Origin: Chloroflexota bacterium
Lineage (GTDB): Bacteria > Chloroflexota > Anaerolineae > Anaerolineales > UBA11858
NCBI GenBank assembly: GCA_034717875.1
Contig: JAYELX010000559.1
Span: 1-30,820 of the forward strand
Direction of reading: 5' to 3'
Length of the DNA: 30,820 nucleotides
Within the stretch, counting starts at the first letter, position 1; every line of letters begins with the position of its first letter. The notes beneath the pieces were generated by a model. That model was not told the DNA's origin. It ran no database searches and saw only the letters and a list, made by a program, of their open reading frames with translations. The position numbers and the translations under genes were made by a program. Below, piece after piece: positions 1 to 30,524 of the stretch.

Positions 1-1231
1 GTTCCATTTGTTTAAGAATATCTGGCAATGCCATAGGACGATGGCGCAGCATTTCGATGACTTGATAGGCGCGCTCGTTGCTGATATTTCGCTGCGGCTC
101 ACGCTGTAGGAACCAATATTCGATTTTATCGCTGGATGGTTTTTTGATGCCCAGGTATTGCAGAGTTTTTAGGTCTTGGGCCACGCTGGGGTAAGTGTCT
201 GCCAGATATGAAATGGGGGTAACCCGGGACGGGCCGATGCTGAGTTTGTTTTCTACATCGAAGCTGATAATGCTGTCGCCGCCCAGCCCAATCGAGCGGA
301 TATTGGCGGCGCGTACGGCGGTTTGGTATTTTCCGACGGAGGTGCCTTCTGCGCGCACGGTGACTTGCCCCTGGTTGATGATGGCGATGTCTGTGGTGGT
401 GCCGCCGATGTCAATGACGATGGCTTGGTTCTCCCCGGATAGGAAACGCCCACCAATTGCGCTGGCGGCTGGGCCGGAGTGTACGGTTTCGACTGGGCGT
501 TGACTGGCTATATCAGCGCTCATCAAGGCTCCATCTCCGCGCACTACCATCAGGGGGGCGGTGATATTTCGCTCGTCCAGCGATTTGCGCATAGCCAATA
601 TGAATTCTTGCAGGATGGAGAGCAGCGAAGCGTTCAGGGTGGCGGTGGTGGCGCGTTGAATCGAGTTTAGCTTGTTGGAGAGTTGGTGCCCGATCACTAC
701 TGGGCGATTTGTTGCTTTGGTGATGGCTTCGAAGGCGCGTTCTTCGTGGGCGGCGTTGAAGGGGCTGAAGTAGCCGGAGACAGCGAAGGCAGCTACTTTA
801 TCTTGGAGGGTGATAGCTCTTTCGGTAATGGAATCCACATCCAAGGGGGTTTGTTCTTCGCCATACAGGTTATGTCCCCCTTCAAAGTAGTGATAGCTTG
901 ATGTGGCAAAATTTCCATTGAGGTTGAATTGTTCCACCAGATCGGAATCGTAGCCGAGCAAAAACAGTGCCACCGGACGACTTTTGCCCTCGGCTATGGC
1001 ATTGGTCGCCAGAGTTGTGGAGATGGAAACCAGGCGGATTTGATTTAGGCCGGTGGGCATGCTGTGCATGTCTGCGATAAGGTTGTCCAGCGCGGTCAGG
1101 ATACACTCTGCCAGGTTGTGCCGGGTGGTCAGGGTTTTGGTGGTTGCTGTGATTTGTCGGGTTTTGTAGTCCAGTAGTACGCCATCGGTGTAGGTTCCGC
1201 CGGTGTCGATACCAAGTACAAGTTCATTCAT
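1..1231 (-). CDS. Hydantoinase/oxoprolinase A-family (ASKHA) protein, paralog 1; 3'-truncated by window edge, absent from the ORF track
   Basis: Manual translation from ATG 1231 is open for 410 codons to the window edge: MNELVLGIDTGGTYTDGVL...SISTTLATNAIAEGK...VETVHSGPAASAIGGRFL...VIDIGGTTTDIA...SIGLGGDS; colinear with 9735..11738. Confidence 0.92.
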   Translation of the reverse strand, partial: MNELVLGIDTGGTYTDGVLLDYKTRQITATTKTLTTRHNLAECILTALDNLIADMHSMPTGLNQIRLVSISTTLATNAIAEGKSRPVALFLLGYDSDLVEQFNLNGNFATSSYHYFEGGHNLYGEEQTPLDVDSITERAITLQDKVAAFAVSGYFSPFNAAHEERAFEAITKATNRPVVIGHQLSNKLNSIQRATTATLNASLLSILQEFILAMRKSLDERNITAPLMVVRGDGALMSADIASQRPVETVHSGPAASAIGGRFLSGENQAIVIDIGGTTTDIAIINQGQVTVRAEGTSVGKYQTAVRAANIRSIGLGGDSIISFDVENKLSIGPSRVTPISYLADTYPSVAQDLKTLQYLGIKKPSSDKIEYWFLQREPQRNISNERAYQVIEMLRHRPMALPDILKQME

Positions 1232-1308
1232 TTTTGTTTTTTCGATAATGGTAAAAAGGTTAGCGATAAAATTATTGTAAGCGTTCAGAGGGGGTGATAT
1301 TCTCAAGG

Positions 1309-1532
1309 GGATAGCGATGGTCTCCGACTGATAGCGCTGGTCTCCGACCGAGCGAGGGGGGGCATCGGTAGGCGTTCGGTCGGGAGACCTTCACTATCGG
1401 CAAAAGTGGATAGCTTGAGACCGAGCGGGGTGGGCATCGGTAGGCGTTCGGTCGGGCAGCCCAGGGCTCGCCGAGGGCGCGCAAAGCGTGCTTCGCGAAG
1501 ACCTTCACTATCTGCAAAAGTGGATAGCTTGA
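1309..1532. repeat. Composite REP/MITE-like palindromic repeat cluster
   Basis: Hairpin gatagcgctggtctccgaccgagcg...cgttcggtcgggagaccttcactatc (1330-1398); a second unit at 1409-1512; agaccttcactatc-N-gcaaaagtggatagcttga occurs twice; related to 28613-28740. Confidence 0.75.
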
Positions 1533-1589
1533 CTTGGCTGTTCGGCGATCAACTTGAGGGGCGTGAACGCTTACCAAATTATTTATACG

Positions 1590-1686
1590 AGGTGACAGTC
1601 ACCTATAAACTCGATCTACACCTTGAATCATATTGCTAACCAGCGTGTTATTTGTAACAAGACACTTTTGCAGGTGACTGTCACCC
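1590..1686. repeat. 97-bp element bounded by two AGGTGACWGTCACCY palindromes (copy 1)
   Basis: aggtgacagtcacct 1590-1604 and aggtgactgtcaccc 1672-1686; 82/97 identical to 11805-11901 by manual alignment. Confidence 0.85.
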
Positions 1687-2625
1687 GTGTTCATCACTTA
1701 TTATATAATCACTAACGTTTTTCCTATTGGGTACCGAGATTATTATAACTCCGCCGACAATTAGAAGTGAGCCGATGATTTGCAAGAAGCTGAGGCGTTC
1801 TCCCAAGACGATGTAGGCCAGAATGCCGGCGAAGGCAACTTCGGATGTGGACGTGATCGAGGCGATGCTGGCTTGGAGGTATCCCAGCCCGGTTGTGTAA
1901 AATCCAAATCCGGCAATTGTTGTGAGAAATACCAGGCTGGCGAAGTAGAGTAACACGTTGGTTGGAAGCGGCCAGGGTGCCGGTTGACCAAATTGGAAGG
2001 GCAGCAGCGTTAATGTGGCAAAGCCAAACACGTAAAGAAGTATCGTCCAGGGGTTGTAGGTGCCGCTTAGTTTTTTGCCGAATAGGCTGAATGAGCCGTA
2101 CGCTATCGCGGAGGCGAGGGCGATTAGAATGCCCAGCGTGGTTATTTGTACGCCGCCCAGACCGTTGATTCCTGATGTTAGTATGGTTCCAACGATGGAT
2201 AGGATTATGGCGATGATTTTACGTCGGGTTAGTGCTTCACCAAAGAGCAGCCATGCCATGACGGTGACAACGATAGGGGCGTTGCATTGAATAACGGTGG
2301 CGAGGGATGCACCTATGAGCATTACGGACGTATTCCATAGTACGTGGAAAGATCCGATGCTGAGTGCGCCCATTGCAAGAAACCAGGGAATATCACCTCG
2401 TTTGATGCGTAGTAATTTGGGGCGGATGATGGCGATGCCTACTAGTAATGATAGAAAGGTGAACATATCGCGGTAGAAGGCCAGCCCTACGGCAGTTATA
2501 CCACTTCCGTTAATGGTTAGATTAATGAATATCCCTGATGTGGACCAGAATACGGTTGCCAAGACAACCAGGATGAGTCCTTGTGCTCTGGTTGGGATTG
2601 GTTTGGAGGTGGTGTTGGTTTTCAT
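1681..2625 (-). CDS. EamA/DMT-family transporter
   Basis: 314 aa, about ten hydrophobic segments, two EamA-like halves (FWSTSGIF; ASIASITSTSEVAFAGILAYIVLGERL). Confidence 0.9.
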   Translation of the reverse strand: MKTNTTSKPIPTRAQGLILVVLATVFWSTSGIFINLTINGSGITAVGLAFYRDMFTFLSLLVGIAIIRPKLLRIKRGDIPWFLAMGALSIGSFHVLWNTSVMLIGASLATVIQCNAPIVVTVMAWLLFGEALTRRKIIAIILSIVGTILTSGINGLGGVQITTLGILIALASAIAYGSFSLFGKKLSGTYNPWTILLYVFGFATLTLLPFQFGQPAPWPLPTNVLLYFASLVFLTTIAGFGFYTTGLGYLQASIASITSTSEVAFAGILAYIVLGERLSFLQIIGSLLIVGGVIIISVPNRKNVSDYIISDEHG

Positions 2626-2629
2626 TGTT

Positions 2630-4204
2630 TTAGTTTGGGGCGAGTGCCATGCCTTGAATGTAGAGTGTGTTGAAGTCGGGGTCGAGATCGAGGTCGATTT
2701 GTTCGGCGTGAGCGGCTAATTTCTCTCCCAGGGCGAAACCTTCGTCGGTCAGGAATATGGCTGCGCCGAATCCTGCGCCATTGGCTATTGTTTCGACCGA
2801 TTCTCGGAGCACGGGTGGAATCATACCAATATTGATGATGGCGTCGATATCTACTTGCCCGCCGAATGAGCCGGTCAGAATTAATTTTTCTAAATCTTGC
2901 GGGCCGAGATCAAGTCGATTCATTAGGATGTCGATTGCGGCGCGAATGGCTCCTTTTGCTTTTTGCAGTTCGCGAATATCGAGTTGCGTAAGCATTAGTT
3001 TTCCGTCTGGGGTTAGCTTTATGCTGTGGATTCCGGCCTGGTTGTTTGTGACCAGGTTTTCGAATCCGACTGGATTGCTGGTGATGCGGCCACTTGGTTC
3101 GATTATTCCAGCGTGTCGGAATTGGTAAACTGCGCTGAGGAGACCTGATCCGGTCAACCCCACGGGTGCTTGGTCGCCGATGGTTTTTAGGATAACTTTG
3201 TTTCCATCTAGACTGAGATCGACAATTGCTCCATCGATGGCGCGCGAGCCACATGAGATGTTGACGCCTTCGAAAGCGGGGCCGGCTGCGGTAGAGGCAG
3301 TTAGGATGCGGTCTCCATCAGTAACCATGACTTCTCCGTTGGTGCCGAGGTCAATGGCGGCCATGGGTGCGGATGGTTTATCGAAGCCAAAGTATGCCAG
3401 GCAAGCCAGAGCGTCAGAGCCGACAAATCCGCCGATCAGAGGTGGAAGGGAGACTTTTGCTCCCTCTGGGAAGATCCCGCCCATGAGGGGGACTGCATCC
3501 ATAATGGAGGCTGCGCTGTGGGGTTGGAAGGGCATCACGGCTATTGTTTCGAGGGGCATTTCTGTCAGCAGGTGGTGCATGGCAACGTTACCGACAATGG
3601 TCACTCGCTCAATGCGTTCTCGAATCCGAGAGGAGAGGCGGAGTGAATCGACTGCCTGGTTGATGGATGCCAGGGCGAGGCGATGGAGACGTTCGGCGTT
3701 ATCGGGGTTGTCTACGGCGGCTGCTAGGCGAGAGATCACATCGGCGCCGTAGACGGTTTGTTGGTTGAGCCCGCCGCCTGCGACAGCTACTTCGCCGTTG
3801 TCTAACATGGTTAAAAATGCTGCTACCGTGGTTGTTCCCAAGTCTATGGCCAGGCCCAGCGGAACGTCTTGCTCGCGTTTGTAACGTGAACTGCTTTTGA
3901 AAAATTTGTTGGAATAAACTACGATAGGGGATAGTATGACTTGGGTATCAGCCTCTACGCGAGCGCGGCAGGCCAGACGGTTGTTGAGGGCCAATTCGCC
4001 GGTGGTCAGGTTTTTTAGCTCGATTTCATCGGGTTCACTGATTCCCTTTTCGACAAGTACCTTGCATTTTCCGCAAGTTCCTCGACCAGCGCAGGGTTGC
4101 TCTAGTGGAAAACCTGTTTTTGCGATGACGTCGCCAAGTATAGAATTTTTTTTGGCCTCGACAGTTTTTTCTTTTTCTCCATAGATAACGGTTACTTTGG
4201 GCAT
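2630..4204 (-). CDS. ATP-dependent reductive activator of corrinoid proteins (RACE/RACo, DUF4445 ASKHA family) with N-terminal [2Fe-2S] domain
   Basis: CAGRGTCGKC...LACRA plant-type ferredoxin motif; ASKHA motifs AIDLGTTTV and IDLGTNGE; STAAGPAFEG; GSFG; adjacent to corrinoid genes. Confidence 0.92.
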   Translation of the reverse strand: MPKVTVIYGEKEKTVEAKKNSILGDVIAKTGFPLEQPCAGRGTCGKCKVLVEKGISEPDEIELKNLTTGELALNNRLACRARVEADTQVILSPIVVYSNKFFKSSSRYKREQDVPLGLAIDLGTTTVAAFLTMLDNGEVAVAGGGLNQQTVYGADVISRLAAAVDNPDNAERLHRLALASINQAVDSLRLSSRIRERIERVTIVGNVAMHHLLTEMPLETIAVMPFQPHSAASIMDAVPLMGGIFPEGAKVSLPPLIGGFVGSDALACLAYFGFDKPSAPMAAIDLGTNGEVMVTDGDRILTASTAAGPAFEGVNISCGSRAIDGAIVDLSLDGNKVILKTIGDQAPVGLTGSGLLSAVYQFRHAGIIEPSGRITSNPVGFENLVTNNQAGIHSIKLTPDGKLMLTQLDIRELQKAKGAIRAAIDILMNRLDLGPQDLEKLILTGSFGGQVDIDAIINIGMIPPVLRESVETIANGAGFGAAIFLTDEGFALGEKLAAHAEQIDLDLDPDFNTLYIQGMALAPN

Positions 4205-4474: not shown

Positions 4475-4891
4475 TCATGATTTTAAGGGATTGGGGCCCA
4501 GCTCCTTGATGCGGTCAGTCATCTCTTGAGCTGCTTCCGCAAAGGCCTGTCCTTGTCCCCCAGACATGAAGAAAATATCCAGACGATCCTGATCAAATCC
4601 AATCTCGTCCAGCATCTTTTTGGTTCGCTTGACCCGGGCCTGGGCGCGTACGTTGCCGTTAACGTGGTGACAGTTCCCGATGGGGCAAGCTATCACGTAA
4701 ACACCGTCGGCGCCATCCTCGAAAGCCTTAAGAATATAGCGTGGGTCTGTTTTACCCGTACAGGGTAAATTCACCAATTTTACATTGGCGGGATACTCGA
4801 TGCGCAACGATCCTGCCGTGTCGGCAGCCATGTTGGCGCAGTAGATACATATAAAGGCAGTGAGTTCAGGTTCGAAGGTTTTATCATTCAT
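4475..4891 (-). CDS. mvhD: MvhD-like [2Fe-2S] subunit (hydrogenase delta/HdrA partner); start corrected to ATG 4891, 138 aa
   Basis: FICIYCANMAAD, NLPCTGKTDP, ADGVYVIACPIGNCHHVNGN; ATG overlaps the hdrA TGA (ATGA 4891-4888), so the track's 40-aa N-terminal extension is unlikely. Confidence 0.9.
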   Translation of the reverse strand: MNDKTFEPELTAFICIYCANMAADTAGSLRIEYPANVKLVNLPCTGKTDPRYILKAFEDGADGVYVIACPIGNCHHVNGNVRAQARVKRTKKMLDEIGFDQDRLDIFFMSGGQGQAFAEAAQEMTDRIKELGPNPLKS

Positions 4892-7800
4892 ATTGTCACC
4901 CAACTTCCTAGGACTGGATATTCTGGTACCATAATTTGTGTATCGGTGTAATTCATCAATTGAATTGCGTTTGCTGGGCACTCCCCGGCGCAAGTGCCGC
5001 ATCCGTGGCATAAGTTTGGCTCGATGTAGGCTGCTCCACCCAGGCTGCCCACACCGCTTTCGCTGTCATCCACTTTGGGGATTTCGAATGGGCAGGTGCG
5101 CGTACAGGTTAGGCAGCCGACACATTTATCAGTGTCTACCACGGCGATGACCCCGCCATAATAATAGGGGTGTTCGGATAGAATTGTGGTCGCCCGTCCT
5201 GCGGTAGCGAGGGCCTGGCTGATGCTTTCTTCGATGAATTTGGGGTAATGGGCAATGCCGCAGAGGAAGATGCCTTCTTCCATAAAGTCCATGGGGCGCA
5301 TCTTGATGTGGGCTTCCAGGAAGAATCCTTCGGTGGAAAGGGGAACGTTGAGTAATTTCGCTAATTCCTGGGTGCCATTTGATGGTACTATGGCGGTGCT
5401 CAGCACTAGGAGACCAGGATCGATGGACAAGGGCTGGTCCAACATAGGTTCCTGCAGTTGAACGCGTAGATTGCCGTTAATGCTTTTGACTTGGGGCTTG
5501 TTTTCGTTGTCGTAGCGGACGAAGATCACGCCTCGCTCCCGAGCATCGGTGTAATATTGCTCTCGGAAACCGTAAGTGATGATATCTTTGTACAGCACTG
5601 TGACGTTGCAATCGGGGTTGATGACTTTGAGACGGATTGCGTTTTTAATCGTGCTGGTGCAGCAAATGCGGGAGCAATAATCATGGTCGGCACCATCAGG
5701 GCGCACGCATTGGATCATGACTACATCATCCAACTCGGCTACCTCATCCATTCGGTGGGTGATAGTGTCCTCCAATTCCAGTTGGGTGAGCACATTAGGA
5801 TGCTGCCCTAATAGATACTGACTACCGCGGGCTTCATGTCCGCCGGTGGCAACGATAGTTGCCCCGTGTGATATCTTTGTTTCACCACCGTCTTGATGGC
5901 GTAGTAGTGAGTGATATGCACCTGCATGACCTTCGTGGCTCACGACTTCCGTTTGATTGTAAACATCAATGTGCTCATGTACACGTACTCGGTTGACCAG
6001 GTCGCGCAGTAACTGTTGGGGATTTTCTCCTCCGACAAGATACTGTATTTTATTCAAGTTGCCACCCAGTTCATTCTCGCGTTCGACTAGAACAGCATTG
6101 AAGCCTGAATCAGCAACGGCAAGAGCGGATGTCATACCGGAGATGCCTCCGCCGATGACCAAAGCTCGTTGGGTTGGGGAGATAGAAGATTTATAGATAG
6201 GTTGCAAGGTGCTGGCGCGTCCCGTAGCTACACGAATCAATTCCATTGCTTTGCGGGTTGCCTTTTCTGGTTCGTGTGGGTGTACCCATGCGCAGAACTC
6301 GCGGATATTGGCCATTTCCAGCAGGTAAGCGTTCAATCCTGCTTCTTTGATGGTGCGTTGGAAGAGCGATTTATGCGTTCGGTCGCTGCATCCTGCTACG
6401 ACGACACGGTTGAGGTCATGCTCTGCGATAGCGTCTTTGATGGCTTGTTGTCCTTCGGGGAAACATCCATATCCGATCTCTTCGGCGTGAACCACATAGG
6501 GATAGGTTCGAGATTTTGCGATTAGACGTTCGATGGATACTGGCCCTTCGATAGATGGATGGCACCGGCAGACAAAGACCCCCACACGTGGTTTTTCATT
6601 GCTGATGTCCCGCTCGGGGGGGAAGTCCTCATTACTCAAGAATGGGTATTCGCGGCTATAGGGGGCTTTCCCGAGTTGGTTGTTGAAAAGACGCATGACA
6701 TCGCCCGCTGCCCCTGCCGAGTCGATTAGAGTATCGGAAATTTCCTTGGGGCTTGAGAACGCCCCGCATACGTAGATGCCGGCCCGGCTGGTTTCCAGGG
6801 GGTTGAATTTGTCTGTTTTGCAGAAACCGTATTGGTTGAGGGCGAAATTAAGCTTTTGGGCAAGTGTGGCTGCCCCGGAGGGGGGTTCCATGCCCACTGA
6901 AAGCACGACCATGTCGAAAGGTTCTTCTTTAATCTGTTTATCACGCGGTTCGAGATATTTAATGATCAGATCGTTAGTGGTAGGGTCTTCATCTAATTGA
7001 GATATGCGGCAGCGAGTGTATTCGACGCCATACTCCTCGTGCGAGCGTTTGAAATAGGAGTTGAATTCCTTGTTGAAGGCGCGCTCATCCATCATGAAAA
7101 TTTGGCAGTGCACGTCGTCAATGCGTTGCTTGGCCAAGATAGCTTCCTTACTGGCATACATGCAGCAAATTGATGAGCAGTACGGGTGATCTTGATCGCG
7201 AGAGCCGATACATTGAAGCCAGGCAATACGTTTTGGCGTTGTGTTGTCTGATGGGCGCAGAACAAGCCCGTTGGTTGGTCCGGAACGACTGACGAAGCGT
7301 TCGTATTGCATGCTGTGGACGACATTGGTGTAGCGGTTGTATCCAAATTCGGCCAATGTGCCGGGGTCTACTAATTTATAACCCAGGGCTAGAATAATGG
7401 CAGATACGGCAACTTTCTCTTCCTGCGGCTTCTCGTTTAGATTGATTGCTCCCGTTGGACATACATCTTCGCAGCGATGGCAATCATCACAATAATCCCC
7501 TTTGTCGATTATGTAGGTATTTGGTATTGCCCGTGGCGCGGTTTTGTGGATGGCCATACGCGACACGATTGATTCTTGAAATTCGCTGGGCATTCGTTGT
7601 GGGCAAGCGATAGCACACAAACCGCAGTTCGTACATCTGTCCGCGTCTACATAGCGAGGTTGGTGCTGCAGGGTGACGGTAAAATTACCCGCTTGACCAC
7701 TGGCATCAACGATCTCGGTTTGAGTCATAATTTCAATATTGGGGTGTTGGTTGTTGTCCATGAAAGCTGGCGAAATTGCCGGGCGTGTGCATCCGTAGCC

Positions 7801-8015: not shown

Positions 8016-8666
8016 CTATATCTCTCGCAAATCATAGATACTCATATCTTCCAGGTTATTGATGACCTCTGTCAGTTGCTTTTTATCAATATTATTGACC
8101 TTGCATACAGAGATCCAAGCATCGGGAATATTCTCTGGGTAATAGCCAACGTTTACCGAAAGATACCCCCCCGCTTCGGCGATGGCGTTGGTCAGTCTGG
8201 CGATTGCCCCCACGCGGTCTGGTTGCAGAACGGAAACGCGTATTCCGTGTCGACGGGCGCCCAATAAATCAACCATGATGTTGAAGATGTCGTTGTCGGT
8301 GATGATACCTACAAGATGCCCATCCCGCATCACCGGTAGACAGCCGATGCGCTCTTCGGCCATAATGCGGGCGGCCTCCTCGATGGGGGTATCATCACCG
8401 ATGGTGGTTATATCTTTGAGCATTACTGCGCGAGCCTTGATTTTTGCTAGAGTATAAGTGATCTCGAAGCGGCTGAAGTTGCTTATATCGGAGGGGAGTG
8501 CGCTCAATAATGTGCTTCGGGTGACCAATCCAATTAGCCGTTGCTCTTCATCCAAAATAGGGAGATGTCGAAAGCTGTTTTCTATCATCAATGCCCGTGC
8601 TTCAGTGACAGGCATTTCTGGGCCCCCACAGATTGGATCAGGTGTCATGCGATCTTTTACAAGCAT
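8016..8666 (-). CDS. CBS-pair + ACT domain protein (AcuB-like), paralog 1
   Basis: MLVKDRMTPDPI, FRHLPILD, IGCLPVM..LVGIITDND, C-terminal ACT-like DRVGAIARLTNAI. Confidence 0.88.
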   Translation of the reverse strand: MLVKDRMTPDPICGGPEMPVTEARALMIENSFRHLPILDEEQRLIGLVTRSTLLSALPSDISNFSRFEITYTLAKIKARAVMLKDITTIGDDTPIEEAARIMAEERIGCLPVMRDGHLVGIITDNDIFNIMVDLLGARRHGIRVSVLQPDRVGAIARLTNAIAEAGGYLSVNVGYYPENIPDAWISVCKVNNIDKKQLTEVINNLEDMSIYDLREI

Positions 8667-21566: not shown

Positions 21567-21598
21567 GGTATTCTCCATTGTGAATATTTTAGTTTGTG

Positions 21599-22807
21599 CT
21601 AGTGTCCTCGCAGGAAGCTGCTGCCTTCGAGTTTTATGCCTTCTTCGTAGCGGGTGGGGCGTAGCGGATTGTCTTCAGGTTTCATTTCACCGGTTACTAA
21701 ATCAGCTATTCGTTTGCCTGCCGCGGGAGAGAGCATCACGCCTGCCCAGTAACCACAATTCAGATAGAAACCGGGCGCTTCAGGAACTGGCCCAATCAGG
21801 GGTTGATCGTCAGGGGTATAAACGTAATGTCCCGCGCTGGTGATTACATCGCTGGCTTTGAGATTTTCAGCAATCTCTTCCCAGAAGGGGAAAAGTGGTA
21901 GTAATTTTTCAATGTTCTGGGCCGCAAAGTAACGGTCAGTGGGGATATATTCAGAGGGTGCGCTTTTTGGCTCGTTGGGGTCAACCCATCCTATAAGAGC
22001 GCCACCAGTTTCTGGCCGCCAGTATGAATCTCGAGATATGTCAATTGAGAGGGGGGCGTTTGGGGGGATTGTCGCCCTGGGGGTGATATATGCCTTTTGG
22101 CGGCGGACTGGCCATAGGGGGAGTTCTAGGTCGAGCATATCTCCCACGACTCCGGCGAAGGGGCCGGCGGCGTTGACGACCACGCGCGTGGCTATGTGCC
22201 CTCGATTGGTTTCTACTCCGCTGACACCCTGAGCGTCTTGCGTGATTCCTGTGGCTTTGGTGCTGACCAAAAAGCGGGCGCTGCTGCCATGAGCAAATCC
22301 CTGAGTGGCTTCATGAGTTGAAAGCCAGCCGTCTTTTTGCCGGAATGTGGCCGCGACAGCTCTTTGGCTGATGTACGGGAAGCGTTGGCGCACTTCATCA
22401 CCGCTGAGATATTCTGAATCGGTCACTCCAAGGCTGTGGTGCGTTTCAACTGCGGCTTTCACGTCGGCAATCATTTCTGCGTCATCGGTGACAAAGAGGT
22501 AGCCCTGGTGGTGAATATCAATGTCAATATCGGGGATGCCGATGATCTCGGCGAAGTTTTCGAAGATTTCTATGCTGGGGATTGCCAGCTCGGCCATGGT
22601 AGGCTCGGTGAATTGGGCGCGGAAACTCTCGATGGAGTTGGGCGTGGTTAGGGTCGAGAGGCCCTCGCGCATCTCCACCAGGACGGTATCCAGCCCGGCT
22701 CGTGAGAGCCAAAAGGCCGTAGCCGTGCCGACGATGCCGCCACCGATGACGACGGCATCAGACGTTTTTGGAAAGGTTTCCTCGGTTGGGGCGAATATTT
22801 TTTTCAT
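21599..22807 (-). CDS. DAO-family FAD-dependent oxidoreductase (sarcosine oxidase beta / HcnC / proline dehydrogenase beta-like)
   Basis: VVIGGGIVG, VVNAAGPFA, YTPDDQPLIGP, GVMLSPAAG; no GcvT domain. Confidence 0.88.
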   Translation of the reverse strand: MKKIFAPTEETFPKTSDAVVIGGGIVGTATAFWLSRAGLDTVLVEMREGLSTLTTPNSIESFRAQFTEPTMAELAIPSIEIFENFAEIIGIPDIDIDIHHQGYLFVTDDAEMIADVKAAVETHHSLGVTDSEYLSGDEVRQRFPYISQRAVAATFRQKDGWLSTHEATQGFAHGSSARFLVSTKATGITQDAQGVSGVETNRGHIATRVVVNAAGPFAGVVGDMLDLELPLWPVRRQKAYITPRATIPPNAPLSIDISRDSYWRPETGGALIGWVDPNEPKSAPSEYIPTDRYFAAQNIEKLLPLFPFWEEIAENLKASDVITSAGHYVYTPDDQPLIGPVPEAPGFYLNCGYWAGVMLSPAAGKRIADLVTGEMKPEDNPLRPTRYEEGIKLEGSSFLRGH

Positions 22808-22860: not shown

Positions 22861-23898
22861 TTAAGCCTCTCTCTTAGAGCGAAGTGCTCTGATTTTACCT
22901 AAAACCCATTGGTAGAAGCCTGAAAAACCATCGGGATAGTATATCATCACCAAGATCATTAAGATACCATAGATGACATTGTGTATACCGGGTAATTCGG
23001 TCAAGCTTGATCGCAAGAATTCGATTAAGAAAACGAAGGGGAAAGCTATAGCTATGCCGCCCCAAAGGCTGCCGCGTCCGCCGATATAGGCAATCGCCAG
23101 CACTTCAACGGTTTTGGATGTGTGCATCAGTGTCATGGGGGTCAGCGAACCGAAGTAATGGGCGTAGAATCCACCCAGCCAGCCGGCGAAGAATGACGAG
23201 ATGGTAAAGTTGAGTACTTTGTACTTGGTGGGGTTGATCCCGGAGGCGCGAGCAGCATCAACGTTCTGGCCAATAGCCTTGAAAGCCAATCCGTAGTTGG
23301 ATTTCGTAATCAGTTTGAGGGTGATAAAGGTGATCACCATCATGCCAAAGATGATGTAGAAGTAAGGCCGGTTGGCTGCTGTTTCCAGAAATCTTGGGGG
23401 GGCCATCCCTAAAGGCCCGCGGGTCCATTCGGTCATGTTGTTGATGATGCCCATTAGCGCAATGCCTACAAACCATGCCATCACTGCGGCGTAGATGCCG
23501 CGCAGACGTAGGGTCAAAAGGCCCAACAAAAAGCCCAGTAGCCCGGCAACAATGGCGCCAATCCAGATACCGATCCAGGGAGAAATGCCTAATTGGGGTA
23601 TGATGAAAGGTTTAGTATTGGCCAGCATGCCTGATGTGTATGCTCCCAAGCCCAGGATGGCGGCAAAACCGAAGTTCACCACATTGATGTAACCGGCTGT
23701 GAAGTCGAAAGCCACCGATTGCGCGGCCAGAAACGCGCCCATGATCATCCATCGGATAATATGCTCTTGGTTAAAGGGTGGAATGAAGGGCAGAACGGCG
23801 ATAATGATTAACAGAATTAGACCTAGAGGTGTAAATCCGATACGATTTAGTAAATCTACGATGCGTTTCCAAGTGTTATTTTTTAAAGCGTTATTCAT
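22861..23898 (-). CDS. livM: Branched-chain amino acid-type ABC permease (LivM family)
   Basis: GYINVVNFGFAAILGLGAY, LRLRGIY, AFKAIGQNVDAARASGIN, IGGRGSLWG. Confidence 0.9.
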   Translation of the reverse strand: MNNALKNNTWKRIVDLLNRIGFTPLGLILLIIIAVLPFIPPFNQEHIIRWMIMGAFLAAQSVAFDFTAGYINVVNFGFAAILGLGAYTSGMLANTKPFIIPQLGISPWIGIWIGAIVAGLLGFLLGLLTLRLRGIYAAVMAWFVGIALMGIINNMTEWTRGPLGMAPPRFLETAANRPYFYIIFGMMVITFITLKLITKSNYGLAFKAIGQNVDAARASGINPTKYKVLNFTISSFFAGWLGGFYAHYFGSLTPMTLMHTSKTVEVLAIAYIGGRGSLWGGIAIAFPFVFLIEFLRSSLTELPGIHNVIYGILMILVMIYYPDGFSGFYQWVLGKIRALRSKREA

Positions 23899-23918: not shown

Positions 23919-24971
23919 TTATTGCTCTTGGATGCTTTTGACTTCACTGCCGAATAGTCCAGACGGAGCGATTAGCAATACCAGTACCATCACAGCAGTG
24001 GGAATTACGGTTTCCCAGGTGATGGTGAAGAAAAGTTGTGTGGATGTCTGGAGCAAAGCGACGATGAAGCCGCCCGCAATAGCACCGACTACATTTCCTA
24101 GTCCAGCCAGCATGACCACGTACCAGGCGAAATAAAGTGGTTTCACCCCCACCGTGGGATAGGCCTGGAACATAAAAAGCAAAGTGGCGCCTGCGATGGC
24201 TGCCATGGCTGTAGCTAGAGAGAATGTCAGCGTTTGGATGAAGTTTAGGTTAATGCCAACGAGTTGAGCGCCAGTTTCGTCTTGTGAGACTGCCCGGATC
24301 GCACGCCCAGTTCGCGTTTTGCGTAGGAACCACCATAAGACGCCAATGGTTACGACGGCGATGAAAAAGGCGACTAATCGGTCAAACGACATGCGGGCGC
24401 CCAAGATTTCAACCGGTTCTATATCCCAGTACTTAGGAATCCCTCTAAAGTTGGTACCAAGTACCAATACTGTGCCATTGGTCATGACGAAGGATAAACC
24501 TACTGTCAGCAAGAAGGCGTTCATGATCCATCCAGATTTGGTTCTATGCCTCAGAGGCGCGAAGACGAGCCGCTCAATGATTACACCAAGAATGGCGCCC
24601 GCCACTCCTGCGGCTAGAACACCGGCGAAGGGAGCAATGTTCTTTAGGAATGTGCTGGGGTTTTCTCCCAAGGCTTCTATCAACGGTGTATAAACAAAGT
24701 AAGATATATATGCCCCAACCATGAAGGATTCTCCATGGGCAAAGTGGGGGACGTTCATAACACCAAACACAAGAGCTAACCCAACAGCCAGTAATGCCCA
24801 CATTCCACCGGACACAATTGTGTTGATGATTTGTGCGGATCCGCCTTTGATCCCGATGGCGATTAGTAGTATCAGTGAAAAGGCAGTTACAATTGTGAGG
24901 GAGAGATTGTCTTTGATTTGGGTCATCAGATTTTTTTGGGTCGTTTGTGCTGCAACTGTATCATTCGCCAT
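23919..24971 (-). CDS. livH: Branched-chain amino acid-type ABC permease (LivH family)
   Basis: GLALVFGVMNVPHFAHG, TGRAIRAVSQD..AQLVGIN, MLAGLGNVVGA. Confidence 0.92.
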   Translation of the reverse strand: MANDTVAAQTTQKNLMTQIKDNLSLTIVTAFSLILLIAIGIKGGSAQIINTIVSGGMWALLAVGLALVFGVMNVPHFAHGESFMVGAYISYFVYTPLIEALGENPSTFLKNIAPFAGVLAAGVAGAILGVIIERLVFAPLRHRTKSGWIMNAFLLTVGLSFVMTNGTVLVLGTNFRGIPKYWDIEPVEILGARMSFDRLVAFFIAVVTIGVLWWFLRKTRTGRAIRAVSQDETGAQLVGINLNFIQTLTFSLATAMAAIAGATLLFMFQAYPTVGVKPLYFAWYVVMLAGLGNVVGAIAGGFIVALLQTSTQLFFTITWETVIPTAVMVLVLLIAPSGLFGSEVKSIQEQ

Positions 24972-25228: not shown

Positions 25229-25933
25229 TCAGATGCCGAGATATGCGTTTCTAACATGCTCGTTTTGTTTTAATTCTTGGCTTGGCCCTTCCATGACTAT
25301 GCGCCCTTGCTCCAAGATGTATGCCCGGTCGGTGATGTTGAGGGTGGCGTTTACGTTCTGCTCTACGAGCAAGATTGTCACCCCTTGATCGCGCAGTTGC
25401 AGAAGGGCGTCAAAAACATCGTAAACCAAGCTGGGTTGCAGGCCAAGAGAAGGTTCGTCAACCAACATAAGCTGTGGATTCGACATCATGCCTCTAGCGA
25501 TGGCCAACATTTTGCGTTCTCCGCCACTCATTGTCCCGGCTAGTTGGTCTTTTCGTTCCTCTAGGCGAGGGAACAGGCTGAAGATAAAATCCAGAGTTTC
25601 AAGTTGGGTGTCTTTGTCGGGCACAGCATAGGCTCCCAAGAGTAGGTTCTCGCTCACGGACATGGCAGTGAAGAGATTTAGCTTTTCTGAAACGTAGCTG
25701 ATGCCCATGCGACTGATCTCATGCGGAGGCGTGTTATTGATAGATTTTCCGTTGAATAATATCTCTCCGTCATTGGGTTTGATTAATCCGGCGATTGTTC
25801 GAAGGGTCGTGGATTTGCCAGCCCCATTGGGACCTACTAAAGCTACAAATTCCCCTTTTTTAACATGAAGGGATACATTCCATAATACTTGGAGGAAGTC
25901 GTAACCTGCGTCAATTTTCTTTAGTTCAAGCAT
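25229..25933 (-). CDS. livF: ABC ATP-binding subunit (LivF family)
   Basis: GPNGAGKST, MSGGERKML, LVDEPSLGL, LLVEQN. Confidence 0.95.
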   Translation of the reverse strand: MLELKKIDAGYDFLQVLWNVSLHVKKGEFVALVGPNGAGKSTTLRTIAGLIKPNDGEILFNGKSINNTPPHEISRMGISYVSEKLNLFTAMSVSENLLLGAYAVPDKDTQLETLDFIFSLFPRLEERKDQLAGTMSGGERKMLAIARGMMSNPQLMLVDEPSLGLQPSLVYDVFDALLQLRDQGVTILLVEQNVNATLNITDRAYILEQGRIVMEGPSQELKQNEHVRNAYLGI

Positions 25934-26657
25934 TGGGAATTTCCTCCTCTCCCAGATATGCCTCGATGACTTTGGGATTTTGTAAGACTTCGTTTGGGGT
26001 ACCCTCAGCGATTGTTGTTCCGTACTGGATGACCATAACGCGATCGCAGATACCTTTGATTACTTGCATAATATGCTCTACCGCGATGATAGTTACGCCT
26101 GTGTCCCGGATCCTTTTGATTAGTGTCATAATAGATTCAAGTTCGCCGCGTGTCAACCCGGATGCCAACTCATCCAGTAGTAAGAGTTTTGGTTGGCAAG
26201 CATACGCTCTTGCCAAGTCGAGACGCTTGAGCTGCACTGTGTTGAGTCGCTCTGCAGGAGTATCTATGGGAAGGGGGAACTCCACAAAATTTATTGCTTC
26301 TCTGGCGCGTTGATTTGCGGGCTTCAAGCCAGTTTTGGTGACACCAAAGATCGCACCGACTTTTACGTTTTCTAAAATGGTTAGTTTGGGGAATGGTCGA
26401 GGAATTTGAAAGGTTCTAGCCATACCTTTCCGGCACATGACATTGGCTGGTTCGCCTGTGGTTTCTTCTCCTGCGAAATAGATGGCACCATCGGTGGGAG
26501 GAAATGCGCCTGATATAGAGTTGAGAAAAGTTGTCTTTCCAGCACCATTAGGGCCAATAAGCCCGTAGATTTGTCCCTCCTCGACTTGCATGGAGACATG
26601 GTTTACGGCAGTTAATCCCCCAAATCTTTTAGTGACCTCTTTTGTATCAAGTAACAT
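25926..26657 (-). CDS. livG: ABC ATP-binding subunit (LivG family)
   Basis: KRFGGLTAV, GPNGAGKTT, RTFQIPRPF, LLLDE, VEH, VIEAYLG. Confidence 0.95.
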   Translation of the reverse strand: MLLDTKEVTKRFGGLTAVNHVSMQVEEGQIYGLIGPNGAGKTTFLNSISGAFPPTDGAIYFAGEETTGEPANVMCRKGMARTFQIPRPFPKLTILENVKVGAIFGVTKTGLKPANQRAREAINFVEFPLPIDTPAERLNTVQLKRLDLARAYACQPKLLLLDELASGLTRGELESIMTLIKRIRDTGVTIIAVEHIMQVIKGICDRVMVIQYGTTIAEGTPNEVLQNPKVIEAYLGEEEIPNA

Positions 26658-26734: not shown

Positions 26735-28159
26735 CTAAGGTTTCGGAGCGAAATCTTGAACTGCCCATTGTGGTGGATAGATGATCTTGCCTTCACCGTC
26801 GAAGTACTGCAGGACGGGGAAGATGTAGTAACCCTCACCTACGATAGGATCAGGAATCGAATCAGGTGAAGCGGCGTATTCGTCCATCACGATGCCATCG
26901 GTGTAGGACCACTCACCGGTCCAAAGGTTCTCTTTGATGAAATTATAGATGGTTTCACTGCTCAGTTCACCGTATTCCTCGATAGTGGCTTCAGCCACGG
27001 CGATGAACATATTGACGCCGTCGTAGGAGAGACCACCAGCGCAGGCGCTGGGCGTAAAGCCAGCTTCGGACTCGAAGGCCTCGGCAAAGGCTTTGCCTTC
27101 TTCGGTGGCCCAACCGGGAATCTGATCAATGACGTAGTTGGAAGCCTCGCCGGTGTTCTCGTACCACTCGCCAGCCCAGCCGAGACCATCCATGATGATC
27201 AGGCTCTTCAGTCCGACTTCGTCAGCCTGCTTGATGAAGGCAGAGGCAACAGGCAGTGCCGCGCTTGTGCCAGCAATCAGAGCAGGGTTAGAGTCCTTGA
27301 ATTTATTGAGCAGCGGGTAGAACTCAGTCTGGTCAATGGCGAAGTATTCTTCGCCCACCTTTTCCCAACCATTTGCTATGAGTTGTTCCTCGATGGCCAT
27401 ACCGAAACTGCGGCCCCAATCGGTGTCCTCTCCGTATAAAGCGAAGGTCTTGGCTTCGGGGGCAAAGGTGCCATCAGCGATGGCAGCTTCTAACATTTGC
27501 ACGTAGGGGATGCACATCTTCGCGGGAGTGGCCCAACCTTTGTACATCCAGTAGCCGTAATATTCAGGATCGGATGCGAAGGTCTCGTTGACCACTTCGG
27601 TGGCGCCAAAGCCGAAGATGTGGGGAATTTTGTGCTTGGCAGCCATTTCCATAGCGGAAACCGAGACGGAGCTGTGCCAGTTGAGCACGCCTGCCTGGAT
27701 GCCATCCTGGACGACGGCTTGCTCATAGGCCTGGGAGGCCTTGGCGGGGTCAGATTGAGAGTCAATCCAAACCGGCTCGATCGTGTATGGCCCAATTTGC
27801 CATCCAATGGCTTCTAAGGCCATATTGGTTGATTGTTTGAACTCATCACCTGTGCGGGCGCTTGGTCCACTGAAAGGTCCAAGGATGCCCAGTTTGAAAA
27901 CCTGTTCTTCCTCAACTACTTCAGCTTCTTCGGCTTCCTCAGCCTCTTCAACTACTTCGGCTTCCTCAGCCTCTTCAACTACTTCGGCTTCCTCGGCCTC
28001 TTCAACTACTTCGGCTTCCTCGGCCTCTTCAACTACTTCGGCCTCTTCAGCTTCCTCAGCCACTGGCTCTTCGGCTGCTGGCTTGCATGCGCCGAGTACC
28101 AACGTCAGCGATACTAGGATCGCTATGATTATAAAAAGGTTCGTTCGCTTAAACTTCAT
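26735..28159 (-). CDS. ABC substrate-binding lipoprotein (Liv/Leu-binding family) with an acidic repeat linker
   Basis: Signal peptide and lipobox LGAC; (EEAEEAEVV)x5; KLGILGPFSGPSARTG; heads the liv operon. Confidence 0.9.
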   Translation of the reverse strand: MKFKRTNLFIIIAILVSLTLVLGACKPAAEEPVAEEAEEAEVVEEAEEAEVVEEAEEAEVVEEAEEAEVVEEAEEAEEAEVVEEEQVFKLGILGPFSGPSARTGDEFKQSTNMALEAIGWQIGPYTIEPVWIDSQSDPAKASQAYEQAVVQDGIQAGVLNWHSSVSVSAMEMAAKHKIPHIFGFGATEVVNETFASDPEYYGYWMYKGWATPAKMCIPYVQMLEAAIADGTFAPEAKTFALYGEDTDWGRSFGMAIEEQLIANGWEKVGEEYFAIDQTEFYPLLNKFKDSNPALIAGTSAALPVASAFIKQADEVGLKSLIIMDGLGWAGEWYENTGEASNYVIDQIPGWATEEGKAFAEAFESEAGFTPSACAGGLSYDGVNMFIAVAEATIEEYGELSSETIYNFIKENLWTGEWSYTDGIVMDEYAASPDSIPDPIVGEGYYIFPVLQYFDGEGKIIYPPQWAVQDFAPKP

Positions 28160-28555: not shown

Positions 28556-28612
28556 CATCTTTTTGGGCTTCTATCATGGCAATTGTATATGAATAATCAG
28601 TAGCTTTTTAAG

Positions 28613-28740
28613 GGATAGCGAGGGTCTCCTGACCGAGCGGCTGCGTGCGTTTCTGTTCGGTCGTACAACCCAGGGTTTGCCAGGGGCGCGCATGCGGATG
28701 CACGCAAAGCGAGCGTGCTTCGCGAAGACCTTCACTATCC
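28613..28740. repeat. 128-bp MITE/REP-like element with 15-bp imperfect terminal inverted repeats
   Basis: ggatagcgagggtct / agaccttcactatcc; internal gaccgagcg, gttcggtcg and gcgtgcttcgcgaagacc shared with 1309-1532. Confidence 0.75.
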
Positions 28741-28839
28741 TTGGTTAGATTAGGGCTGTATATTCAATCCTTTATCCGATCGCCCTGATTATATTGCTTT
28801 CGATGACAGCGATGGAATGTTTCGACAATACAGCAACAG

Positions 28840-29040
28840 GTGCATTGCACTTAGGGGAGTGCGTTGCACCTGCGAGGTGGTAAATACAAGATGTTTCCTG
28901 TCGCCCCAATGTGCAACGCACCAATGATATCTCGTTCCATCCGCTCTGCGGTGGAACACTTCATACTTACAATGCAACCACTACACAAGATGTTTCCTGT
29001 CGCCCCAATGTGCAACGCATCGAGAGCAAATGCAATGCAC
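28840..29040. repeat. Composite repeat: two exact 35-bp direct repeats plus GTGCA(A/T)YGCA palindromic arms
   Basis: acaagatgtttcctgtcgccccaatgtgcaacgca at 28886-28920 and 28985-29019; gtgcattgca (28840) / tgcaatgcac (29031). Confidence 0.8.
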
Positions 29041-29084
29041 ATCCTCTTTGAGCAAGTTCGTTTACGGTTTGATAGAAAGATACT

Positions 29085-30524
29085 TTACTCCTCAGCTTTT
29101 TGAATGACAGCATCTAAGGTCTCAGCAATGCTTTGGTCTAAAGCCGCTGGTTCGTAAGTCTCGAAGACTTCACGAACTTTGGCACTTGCGCGATCCCCCA
29201 TGGTCAGCTCCCCGTCAAGTTCCCATTCTTCCCGAGATGAGCGGTCAAAGAGTTTGGGAATCCAATTGCGGCGGAAGTGTTGGAAGGTGTGGTCGTCGCC
29301 TACAAAGTTGCCACCCGGCCCAACACGGTCAATAGCCTCCAGAGCGATGGTTTCATTGTCGATCTCAATCCCACCCATGAAACGTTTCACCAGACCGGCC
29401 ACCTCATTCATGGCTACAATTTGCTCATACGAAGCGGTTAATCCCGATTCGATGTAACCGACATCGTGGATCAAATTTCCACCTCCCAGCGCCGTAATCA
29501 TCATCCAAATTGCACCTTCCGCGGCGGCTTGTTGGTCGAAGGCTTTTGAGTCAGAGCAGCCAGAGAAGCTGAAGATTGGCAATTTGTAATAGTGATACAT
29601 CTCGCTGAAAGCGGTCATCGCCAGCATGAACTCCGGCGCGGCGTAGGAAATTGCTCCCTTGGCCATATCCATGAAAAGGATGCCGCCCGCACCGATCACT
29701 GGCGCGCCCTCGCGTACAAGTTGGGTGATCAGCAGCCCGCTGAGTGCCTCGGCGTTAGCTTGCACTAGTGCGCCAGCAACGGTCACCGGAGCGGTGGCGC
29801 CAATCATCATGCCGGGTGTGTAGACGACCGGCAGGCCTTTGTCTGCCAGGAAAAGTAATTTTTCGCAGCTCTCTTCAGCGTGGGTCAAGGGGGAAATGGG
29901 CTCACTGTACAGCGCCATGAAAGGATTTCGGCGCAGGGCTTCGGCACCACCGGCGACAGCTTCCGCCATTTCGACGATGGCTTTCAGGTTTGAACGGCTC
30001 CAGGCGGTGTAGATGATGGGCTTGGAGGTGTTATGAACCATCTCCCGAAAGTGATACAAGTCCGAGATAGACTCGGTCACATCAGAAGCGATGCCCATGC
30101 ACATGAGAAAGTCAATGTGCTCTAAAGCGTCCACCAATTTTGCCACATTAGCCACATCTTCCAATACGGCTTTTCGGCGCTGGCCGGTATAGGCATCAAT
30201 AACAAAGGGCGTGTCAGACCCAGTTCCATAGTACCCTTTGCGGCCTTCCAGTTCCATGGCGGGATTTCCGTCTCGGTCGCACAACACAACCCTGCTGGGC
30301 GCGACGCGGATGGCCCAATCAATCAGGTCAGGTGGGATGCGCACACGGGCACCATCCAGCCAGCATCCAGCTTCTTTCAGTAACTCGCGCACCTCGGGAA
30401 CGAGCACATCCACCCCGGTGCGGCGGAGTACCTCCAGAGTCGCACTGTGAATCTTGCCTTTTTGCTCGTCACTGAGCAGATGAATGCCGGGACTTACTTG
30501 AGCAGTAAAATTGCTGTTGATCAT
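29085..30524 (-). CDS. mttB: Non-pyrrolysine trimethylamine methyltransferase-family protein, paralog 4
   Basis: 479 aa; YGTGSD, EPISPL, GATAPVT, AAPE, SGCSDSKAFDQQA, IHDVGYIE, VGPGGNF. Confidence 0.93.
   Translation of the reverse strand: MINSNFTAQVSPGIHLLSDEQKGKIHSATLEVLRRTGVDVLVPEVRELLKEAGCWLDGARVRIPPDLIDWAIRVAPSRVVLCDRDGNPAMELEGRKGYYGTGSDTPFVIDAYTGQRRKAVLEDVANVAKLVDALEHIDFLMCMGIASDVTESISDLYHFREMVHNTSKPIIYTAWSRSNLKAIVEMAEAVAGGAEALRRNPFMALYSEPISPLTHAEESCEKLLFLADKGLPVVYTPGMMIGATAPVTVAGALVQANAEALSGLLITQLVREGAPVIGAGGILFMDMAKGAISYAAPEFMLAMTAFSEMYHYYKLPIFSFSGCSDSKAFDQQAAAEGAIWMMITALGGGNLIHDVGYIESGLTASYEQIVAMNEVAGLVKRFMGGIEIDNETIALEAIDRVGPGGNFVGDDHTFQHFRRNWIPKLFDRSSREEWELDGELTMGDRASAKVREVFETYEPAALDQSIAETLDAVIQKAEE

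Follow-up and report, generated by a model that had tools for sequence, protein, structure and literature searches.

The contig JAYELX010000559.1 of a Chloroflexota genome assembly (GCA_034717875.1) carries a cluster of 23 genes that constitutes a corrinoid-dependent N-demethylation island. This island is real, conserved and coherent, and we favor, with moderate confidence, its interpretation as a catabolic system by which an anaerobic brine member of the Anaerolineales would use glycine betaine along with its partly demethylated products or close N-methyl analogs. The window analyzed here is the entire contig (30,820 bp; C559), and the left end of the island is truncated by the contig end. 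The island combines four paralogs of the MttB superfamily (MttB-A to MttB-D) and two corrinoid proteins (CoP1 and CoP2) with a single outlet to methyl-tetrahydrofolate (methyl-THF), a single activase and an importer of its own, in agreement with a preliminary description of the sequence that had proposed such a system. All 23 genes are located on the minus strand, and the open reading frame (ORF) listing and the Pfam and NCBIfam scans of the window bear out every item of the content given in that description. Two GntR/FCD regulators and two CBS-pair proteins, absent from its list, bring the total to 23. The clustering is not a chance occurrence, as 91 species-level genomes share the gene order.

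The 91 loci were identified by searching species-representative genomes with HyuA1, one of the two hydantoinase-A-like ATPases of the island, and then with an alignment of HyuA proteins. The content of each locus was determined by tblastn of all window proteins, with flanks of at most 10 kb; many of the contigs are short, so the counts are lower bounds. The recurring order is Liv permeases–(DAO)–MttB-B–(CBS1)–MtgA–GntR1–CoP1–MttB-C–CoP2–MttB-D–HyuA1–GntR2–RACo–EamA–HyuA2. HyuA1 is matched in all 91 loci, GntR2, which follows it, in 80, MttB-D, with HyuA1 immediately downstream, in 76, CoP2 in 68, MttB-C in 65 and CoP1 in 53. Less frequent are RACo (49 loci) and EamA, which follows RACo (46), MtgA and MttB-B (33 each), the LivM-type permease (20 within the flank limits) and DAO (15, always between the permease and MttB-B), whereas HdrA and MvhD are matched in 2 loci. 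The LivH/M-type permease upstream of MttB-B is conserved among the relatives, and CBS1 comes after MttB-B in 13 related loci. Across the loci, MttB-C and MttB-D are 68–93% identical and are thus more conserved than HyuA1 (48–77%).

Most hosts of the 91 loci belong to the Anaerolineae, joined by some Caldilineaceae and Ardenticatenales and by several Desulfobacterales, an Olavius symbiont among them. In a sample of 300 class genomes, MttB-D was detected in 16, an MtgB-like MttB-B in 19 and both in 12, counts that come from related and hence not independent genomes; the patchy, coincident distribution of the two proteins fits a single accessory pathway. The core CoP–MttB-C–CoP–MttB-D–HyuA was also observed in metagenome-assembled genomes (MAGs) of Desulfobacterales and in Delta 3, a symbiont of Olavius algarvensis (L094, L110, L144, L147, L157 and L170). 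Given that MttB-D in these bacteria is 72–77% identical, the comparison suggests that the core was transferred between phyla.

The link to glycine betaine is provided by MttB-B (474 aa; 20154..21578), which matches the Desulfitobacterium hafniense glycine betaine methyltransferase MtgB (9YCE/2QNE) with 497 bits and an E-value of 2.5e-148, residues 11–471 being aligned with residues 7–469 of 9YCE. In MtgB, the betaine site consists of Y97 and F356 (cation-pi interaction) and of R312 and H348 (carboxylate) (Picking et al., 2026; PMC13080624). According to the printed alignment, in which the chain numbering is offset by 2, Y97, R312 and H348 are identical in MttB-B, F356 is replaced by Tyr and so remains aromatic, and Leu occupies the position of the pyrrolysine. 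The MtgB signature is held in 23–26 of the 26 MttB-B orthologs, with Leu again at the pyrrolysine position. MttB-B thus looks like a true MtgB ortholog, a predicted MtgB-type glycine betaine:corrinoid methyltransferase, and the presence of such an enzyme among the four MttB proteins, anticipated in the preliminary description, is supported by the full-length match and the binding residues. None of the four is a pyrrolysine-dependent MttB: all four ORFs are uninterrupted and free of in-frame UAG codons, the scores against the respective model (TIGR02369) are 353–436 bits compared to a cut-off of 525, and the pyrrolysine position is occupied by Cys or Leu.

The three remaining paralogs, MttB-A (479 aa; 29085..30524; PF06253, 356 bits), MttB-C (485 aa; 14471..15928; PF06253, 306 bits) and MttB-D (500 aa; 12064..13566; PF06253, 340 bits), are outside every characterized substrate class because the site residues are lost, the clades are separate and the identity to MtgB, MtpB and MtcB is low. 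They are 27–30% identical to MttB-B and 38–41% identical among themselves, and have Ser, Pro and Ser, respectively, at the position of Y97 of MtgB, Phe, Trp and Tyr at that of R312, and Gly, Ala and Gly at that of F356. The aromatic cage and Arg312 are likewise lost in 7, 63 and 69 orthologs of MttB-A, MttB-C and MttB-D. All three possess a Cys, embedded in the motif G-C-S/T-D-S, that is aligned with the pyrrolysine of the Methanosarcina barkeri MttB and is retained in 7 of 7, 62 of 63 and 69 of 69 orthologs, respectively. Among solved structures, MttB-A matches the pyrrolysine MttB and MtgB equally well (about 223 bits each), MttB-C matches MtgB with 212 bits (signature P/W/C/H/A at the MtgB and pyrrolysine positions), and the closest relative of MttB-D is the pyrrolysine MttB 7XCL (215 vs 192 bits), with Cys330 aligned to the pyrrolysine. 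The predicted model of MttB-D has a pLDDT of 89, and its identity to the Swiss-Prot MtgB, MtpB and MtcB sequences is 27, 23 and 21%; the comparisons were made by fold and identity against Swiss-Prot and by sequence score against the PDB. In the maximum-likelihood tree, each of these three clades is supported at 100/100, and MttB-A, MttB-C and MttB-D, together with one paralog from a second contig of the same genome, C258 (see below), form a group (98/97) apart from the MtgB-like protein. A profile search with the six paralogs retrieved almost exclusively MtgB-like Chloroflexota proteins, with no named characterized enzyme among the matches.

CoP1 (212 aa; 16171..16809) and CoP2 (213 aa; 13798..14439) consist of a B12-binding_2 cap and a B12-binding Rossmann domain with the DxHxxG motif, as expected of MtgC-type proteins; the motif is DLHDIG at residues 100–105 in both, and the two proteins are 59% identical. 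Their best matches are the MtgC "exception" models, at 212–228 bits and thus below the 370-bit cut-off, so naming them at the level of substrate is not supported. The methylcorrinoid:THF methyltransferase is an MtgA-like protein (288 aa; 17579..18445) with a Pterin_bind domain that scores 321 bits against NF005719 (cut-off 259). The single ATP-dependent reductive activase is of the RACo type (524 aa; 2630..4204; Fer2, Raco_middle and RACo_C_ter) and comprises an N-terminal 2Fe-2S domain with Cys38, Cys44, Cys47 and Cys79, a middle domain and a C-terminal ASKHA ATPase domain.

The two HyuA proteins are orphan hydantoinase-A-like ATPases of the ASKHA fold. HyuA1 (667 aa; 9735..11738) and HyuA2 (2..1231) are 54% identical; the C-terminus of HyuA2 is cut by the contig end at 435 aa, compared to a full length of about 660 aa in relatives, where it closes the gene cluster, and its conserved start MNELVLGIDTGG is at ORF residue 26. 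Both match Hydant_A_N and only positions 1–145 of the 291 positions of Hydantoinase_A, with weak hits to MutL/GlmL, and the similarity to PDB entries is limited to residues 12–337. Hydantoinase_B (PF02538) was not detected in the 92%-complete genome nor downstream of HyuA in relatives, and since the B subunit is missing and the A domain is incomplete, a genuine hydantoinase or oxoprolinase was rejected, as was an Fe-S reductive activase (one Cys in HyuA1 and one in the visible part of HyuA2). The family retrieved with HyuA1 is large (1090 clusters at 50% identity, E≤1e-30) and some of its members are fused to DUF1638, a domain that is treated as part of the reductive recharging of cobalamin in the work on Ruegeria (PMC12478193). 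One distant member is found in the arrangement HyuA–ACT–RACo–DUF1638–Pterin_bind and another one near URO-D and a corrinoid protein. Overall, the distant contexts are mixed: genes of the corrinoid, RACo, DUF1638 or Pterin_bind type are close by in 3 of 9 different contexts, other members occur in unrelated contexts, the DCMF locus discussed below not being among the contexts inspected. With low confidence, HyuA can be viewed as an ATP-dependent accessory factor of corrinoid methyltransferases, which could act in the handling of the cofactor or protein or in substrate activation.

Upstream of each HyuA gene lies a homologous region of about 115 nt that contains two AGGTGACWGTCACCT palindromes at an identical spacing of 82 bp (11807..11899 upstream of HyuA1 and 1592..1684 upstream of HyuA2). 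This shared control region with its palindrome pairs points to co-regulation of the two genes. The palindrome GTGACWGTCAC has 7 matches in the window compared to 0.27 expected; further copies are located at 17513–17523, just upstream of GntR1 (16829..17458), and at 19809 and 17280. The palindrome pairs are probably operators of the GntR/FCD regulators, the second of which, GntR2 (8875..9516), follows HyuA1. A generic promoter and terminator scan of the window gave counts not above the shuffled expectation.

The CBS-pair protein CBS2 (8016..8666) is the first gene of a CBS–HdrA–MvhD unit that continues with a double HdrA-like flavo-iron-sulfur protein (1039 aa; 4888..8007), which matches the methanogen HdrA (5ODC) in three stretches with 555 bits, and MvhD (138 aa; 4475..4891; PF02662, 146 bits; five Cys), the start of which overlaps the HdrA stop. 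At E≤1e-100, 139 of 301 class genomes contain an HdrA match, which in some cases is a related HdrA-type protein of about 1500 aa, and full-length homologs of the double HdrA occur in many class genomes. Ten loci were inspected in relatives. The nearest ones (L198–L200; 73–74% identity) contain a contiguous array MtgA–CBS–HdrA–MvhD–MetV–MetF–HdrCB, in one case followed by RACo–EamA, and in four further loci the HdrA–MvhD unit is located beside a second HdrA–MvhD–MetV–MetF–HdrCB set. Altogether, HdrA–MvhD adjoins MetVF–HdrCB in 7 of the 10 loci, and CBS precedes HdrA in L198–L202. In many Anaerolineae (L202–L207), a second, very long frame for the 1500-aa HdrA-type protein follows 2–3 kb after the double HdrA–MvhD and is itself followed by MvhD–MetV–MetF–HdrCB; a large Hdr/MetFV supercluster appears to be typical of the class. 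In the genome analyzed here, MetV–MetF–HdrCB is encoded on another contig (C234), apart from the HdrA–MvhD of the island. Because the relatives place the unit next to MetV–MetF–HdrCB, HdrA–MvhD is predicted to be the HdrA/MvhD part of a methylene-THF reductase system of the Moorella MetFV–Hdr type, and its presence in the island would reflect the step after MtgA, that is, the oxidation of methyl-THF. The preliminary description had listed a redox module with an HdrA lacking HdrBC; a reading of it as an autonomous module is not upheld given that in relatives CBS–HdrA–MvhD continues into MetV–MetF–HdrCB and that the unit is found in just 2 of the 91 islands. The apparent lack of HdrBC is probably due to the gene order in this lineage and to the fragmentation of the assembly.

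The host genome is a 3.5 Mb MAG in 566 contigs (91.8% complete). Its rpoB is at best 84% identical to those of uncultured Anaerolineales MAGs, with all top hits from Anaerolineae or other Chloroflexota, and in a search of sequencing runs the DNA was present solely in runs of one brine-metagenome study. Betaine is a main osmolyte in brines. The genome encodes two ACS (CdhC) loci, CODH and MetF, with FolD and Fhs side by side. Contig C234 (L083 1156–16585) encodes two further HdrA-like proteins, a ferredoxin, MetV, MetF and a fused HdrCB, directly beside which are the glycine cleavage genes gcvH, gcvPA and gcvPB. Thus, a pathway that uses methyl-THF, the presence of which in the genome was to be checked according to the preliminary description, is in place (MetF/MetV, FolD, Fhs, ACS and CODH). 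With ACS/CODH, FolD, Fhs and glycine cleavage, methyl-THF has outlets, and the host, judging from its genes, is able to oxidize or assimilate methyl groups. The suggestion that the host differs from classical acetogens and methanogens stands with respect to its taxonomic position, rpoB being of the uncultured Anaerolineales type, but has to be tempered by the full Wood–Ljungdahl gene set. A search of the genome for dsrA gave no match, and a sulfate-reducing host was rejected on this ground; a search for GrdB also gave no match in the host genome, but neither did it in the control genomes.

The importer is a Liv-type ABC system that includes a Peripla_BP_6 substrate-binding protein (474 aa; 26735..28159; Pfam, with weak PDB matches only), a LivG-like ATPase (25926..26657; ABC_tran and BCA_ABC_TP_C), a LivF-like ATPase (25229..25933; ABC_tran), a LivH/M-type permease (23919..24971; BPD_transp_2) and a LivM-type permease (22861..23898; BPD_transp_2). 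Between the latter and MttB-B is the gene for the DAO-family flavoprotein (402 aa; 21599..22807; PF01266, 176 bits), which we predict to be amine-oxidizing. Its best PDB hit is 1Y56_B of Pyrococcus horikoshii, the beta type of sarcosine oxidase/proline dehydrogenase (115 bits), and FAD domains of dimethylglycine dehydrogenase and glycine oxidase are also among the best hits. The protein consists of the FAD domain only, without the folate-binding GcvT domain or the alpha, gamma and delta partners, and scores 67 bits against the NCBIfam soxB model (cut-off 529); it does not have the make-up of a dimethylglycine oxidase or dehydrogenase or of a heterotetrameric sarcosine oxidase. A second locus of the same genome, on contig C258 (L082 5046–15587), encodes an OpuA-type ABC transporter, a double OpuAC, an MttB of 491 aa, a PrpD/MmgE-like protein and an MttB of 485 aa, the two MttBs having Met and Ala, respectively, at the pyrrolysine position. 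In two relatives (L143 and L145), an OpuA-type transporter directly follows HyuA2, and for this reason C258 may be the continuation of the contig that carries the island.

The family assignments, the MtgB signature, the synteny and the host pathways are direct readings of the sequence. On their basis, the following scheme can be proposed. The Liv-type ABC system would import the substrate, and MttB-B would move one methyl group from glycine betaine to a Co(I) corrinoid protein. The CoP1/MttB-C and CoP2/MttB-D pairs, with HyuA1, and MttB-A would take off further N-methyl groups, the most likely substrates of MttB-A, MttB-C and MttB-D being dimethylglycine and sarcosine, and DAO would allow a secondary or tertiary amine product to be processed by oxidation. 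MtgA would transfer all corrinoid-bound methyls to THF, and RACo would restore inactive Co(II) corrinoid at the expense of ATP and an electron. Methyl-THF would be oxidized by CBS2–HdrA–MvhD with MetV, MetF and HdrCB of contig C234 and the product either directed through FolD and Fhs to CO2 or through ACS/CODH to acetyl-CoA, and glycine would enter the glycine cleavage system encoded beside MetFV. The two GntR/FCD regulators, acting on the paired palindromes, would probably control the island. In this scheme, the substrates given for MttB-A, MttB-C and MttB-D are inferences, as are the function of HyuA, what the importer binds and the partners with which HdrA would exchange electrons; stepwise demethylation from betaine through dimethylglycine to sarcosine is plausible. 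The more specific proposal that the Cys-type MttBs, with an aromatic residue in place of the carboxylate-binding Arg, their own CoPs and HyuA form an ATP-assisted, pyrrolysine-independent machine that demethylates non-quaternary amines (dimethylglycine and sarcosine) appears unlikely at present.

Several observations weigh against the catabolic interpretation centered on betaine and its demethylation products. In addition to the aromatic cage, MttB-A, MttB-C and MttB-D lack R312, the Arg that binds the carboxylate and the equivalent of which is kept in all characterized members acting on acidic substrates (PMC13080624), so these proteins are a poor fit to dimethylglycine or sarcosine, both of which carry a carboxylate. 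Orthology with the cluster of the betaine-degrading bacterium "Ca. Formimonas warabiya" DCMF would be one of architecture only (gene order and sizes). DAO is found in only 15 and HdrA–MvhD in only 2 of the 91 related islands. Liv-type binding proteins are not known to serve as betaine receptors, and the classical OpuA/OpuAC betaine importer is encoded, with two MttB paralogs, on another contig. The genome is a MAG that is only 92% complete and is split into 566 contigs, and no RNA runs containing the DNA were found in the same run search. An alternative is the parallel use of different substrates, whereby each MttB paralog would serve a different imported osmolyte or quaternary amine and share MtgA and RACo with the others, similar to the situation in Eubacterium limosum. 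We regard this as unlikely; the candidate substrates would be proline betaine, carnitine, gamma-butyrobetaine, choline derivatives and N-methyl amino acids. E. limosum indeed has separate MttB paralogs for separate quaternary amines (PMC13080624), the six paralogs of the present genome show 27–42% mutual identity and form three well-separated clades, two types of importers are present (Liv in the island and OpuA on C258), and the amino-acid type of the former suggests amino-acid-like substrates. However, MttB-A, MttB-C and MttB-D lack both the aromatic residues that bind the quaternary nitrogen and the Arg, which are kept in all characterized members that act on quaternary amines (PMC13080624), and MttB-C and MttB-D, each with its own CoP, are inseparable in at least 65 genomes, which better suits consecutive steps on one substrate.

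Alternatively, the Cys-type MttBs could be pyrrolysine-independent methyltransferases acting on tri-, di- or monomethylamine. Sites of betaine degradation are rich in methylamines, the Cys-type proteins fall into three clades, and MttB-D has the pyrrolysine-containing MttB as its closest solved relative (by the scores given above), shares with it the Tyr at the R312-equivalent position and aligns its Cys with the pyrrolysine. Nevertheless, this possibility seems very unlikely because Cys cannot make the imine adduct proposed for pyrrolysine, the Cys-type paralogs are tightly linked to an MtgB ortholog, and DCMF, with the same architecture, induces its cluster on betaine and excretes methylamine without using it (PMC9768040). 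Operation of the module in the synthetic direction, that is, methylation of glycine, sarcosine or dimethylglycine from methyl-THF, driven by ATP hydrolysis by HyuA, to yield betaine as an osmolyte, would suit the brine habitat but is highly improbable: the island contains no GSMT/SDMT-type gene, possesses an importer, an MtgB-type demethylase, GntR/FCD regulators of the catabolic type and a methyl-THF oxidation module, and is linked to glycine cleavage and Wood–Ljungdahl genes. With regard to the Hdr genes, HdrA–MvhD might supply RACo directly with low-potential electrons by electron bifurcation rather than be part of a methylene-THF reductase. RACo requires a low-potential electron, as established for the family, and HdrA–MvhD is located immediately upstream of RACo here and in the two nearest relatives. 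Class-wide, however, the unit usually adjoins MetV–MetF–HdrCB, with or without RACo, 89 of the 91 related islands have no HdrA–MvhD nearby, and many genomes have an HdrA match without the MttB-D island (139 of 301 genomes with HdrA vs 17 of 301 with MttB-D), and we therefore consider a dedicated electron supply for RACo quite unlikely.

Among the other features of the window, the EamA/DMT-family transporter (1681..2625; PF00892, two repeats) follows RACo, and CBS1 (19105..19749; PF00571) is separated from MtgA by a 660-bp stretch without a long ORF (18446–19104). In relatives, MttB-A is mostly found between RACo and EamA, or elsewhere, and for this reason the gene appears to have moved to the front end of the island in this contig; a 925-bp non-coding stretch (28160–29084) separates it from the binding-protein gene. 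Between the control region and the start of HyuA2 is a GC-rich repeat element, about 280 bp long (window positions 1268–1583). It contains direct repeats (34, 29 and 20 nt), is bounded by a 20-nt inverted repeat (1268–1287/1564–1583) and looks like a small inserted element. A 101-aa ORF at 1272–1577 was rejected as a gene: it overlies the element, the encoded peptide is internally repeated, and the ORF is considered spurious because it is created by the repeat element.

Glycine betaine is a major osmolyte and a methane precursor in saline anoxic habitats, and to our knowledge anaerobic betaine degradation past dimethylglycine is poorly understood. The genes described here predict that brine Anaerolineae and some Desulfobacterales possess a complete, conserved B12-dependent path linking betaine to the folate pool, a path that in relatives is physically tied to an Hdr-type methylene-THF reductase. 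If the Cys-type MttBs do demethylate dimethylglycine and sarcosine with the assistance of HyuA, anaerobes in at least three phyla would be capable of fully degrading glycine betaine without oxygen and without glycine/sarcosine reductase. The MttB-C/MttB-D/HyuA module, the architectural counterpart of which is induced by betaine in DCMF, is a sharp target, and assigning its chemistry would improve the annotation of thousands of metagenomic "trimethylamine methyltransferase" genes.

Comparison with known systems identifies the island as a Chloroflexota representative of a pathway type that is already known. The closest counterpart is the nine-gene cluster Ga0180325_114734-114742 of "Ca. Formimonas warabiya" DCMF (Holland et al., 2022; PMC9768040), with the order CoP (210 aa)–methyltransferase I (MTI; 485)–CoP (210)–MTI (488)–"N-methylhydantoinase A/oxoprolinase" (668)–methyltransferase II (MTII; 265)–MtgB (471)–two BCCT transporters. 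Each of the nine proteins shows a strong increase in abundance on glycine betaine, the initial half of the cluster is syntenic with Sporomusa ovata and "Ca. Frackibacter", and DCMF demethylates betaine to dimethylglycine and sarcosine, for which the authors suggest separate MTI/CoP pairs per substrate (PMC9768040). The order and sizes of the core genes in the island match (212–485–213–500–667 aa), and both systems have one MTII and a separate MtgB-type MTI. Hence the combination with an orphan hydantoinase-A protein, considered uncharacterized in the preliminary description, had already been described, although at the omics level only, by proteomics (PMC9768040). Unlike DCMF, which belongs to the Bacillota (Peptococcaceae), the present host is a member of the Chloroflexota; the BCCT transporters of DCMF contrast with the Liv-type ABC system of the island; DAO, EamA, the second HyuA, the GntR pair and HdrA–MvhD, all present here, are missing from the DCMF cluster; and DCMF sends sarcosine to the Grd reductase, whereas glycine cleavage genes are found here.

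The D. hafniense Y51 MtgB–MtgC–MtgA system (2QNE/9YCE; PMC13080624) shares with the island the MtgB match, an MtgC-like CoP, an MtgA-like protein and a RamA/RACo activase but contains only one MTI and one corrinoid protein and is devoid of the Cys-type paralogs and the HyuA-like protein. MtpB, MtcB, MtyB and MthB of E. limosum similarly belong to the non-pyrrolysine MttB superfamily, with a TIM-barrel fold and CoP and THF methyltransferase partners, yet MttB-D is just 23 and 21% identical to MtpB and MtcB, respectively, and MttB-A, MttB-C and MttB-D are without the Arg and the aromatic cage. The pyrrolysine MttB of M. barkeri (7XCL) has the same fold, is the closest solved relative of MttB-D and ties with MtgB for MttB-A; in contrast to it, these paralogs have no in-frame UAG and carry Cys at the pyrrolysine position. 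In Ruegeria pomeroyi, MtgBCD(E) (PMC12478193) combines an MtgB-type first step with RamA-/DUF1638-type reactivation and often co-located downstream demethylation genes; however, this system is aerobic, removes the later methyls via oxidative flavoenzymes, is tied to methionine synthesis (split methionine synthase) and lacks the Cys-type MttB/HyuA module. Finally, the MetFV–HdrCBA–MvhD complex of Moorella thermoacetica (PMC5861303; PMC8515935) is the probable counterpart of the HdrA/MvhD genes that in relatives are located beside MetV, MetF and an HdrCB-like CCG protein. The differences are that the HdrA of the island is a tandem double module of 1039 aa with a CBS protein gene before it, that HdrC and HdrB are fused, and that HdrA–MvhD is separated from MetFV and placed inside a demethylation island.

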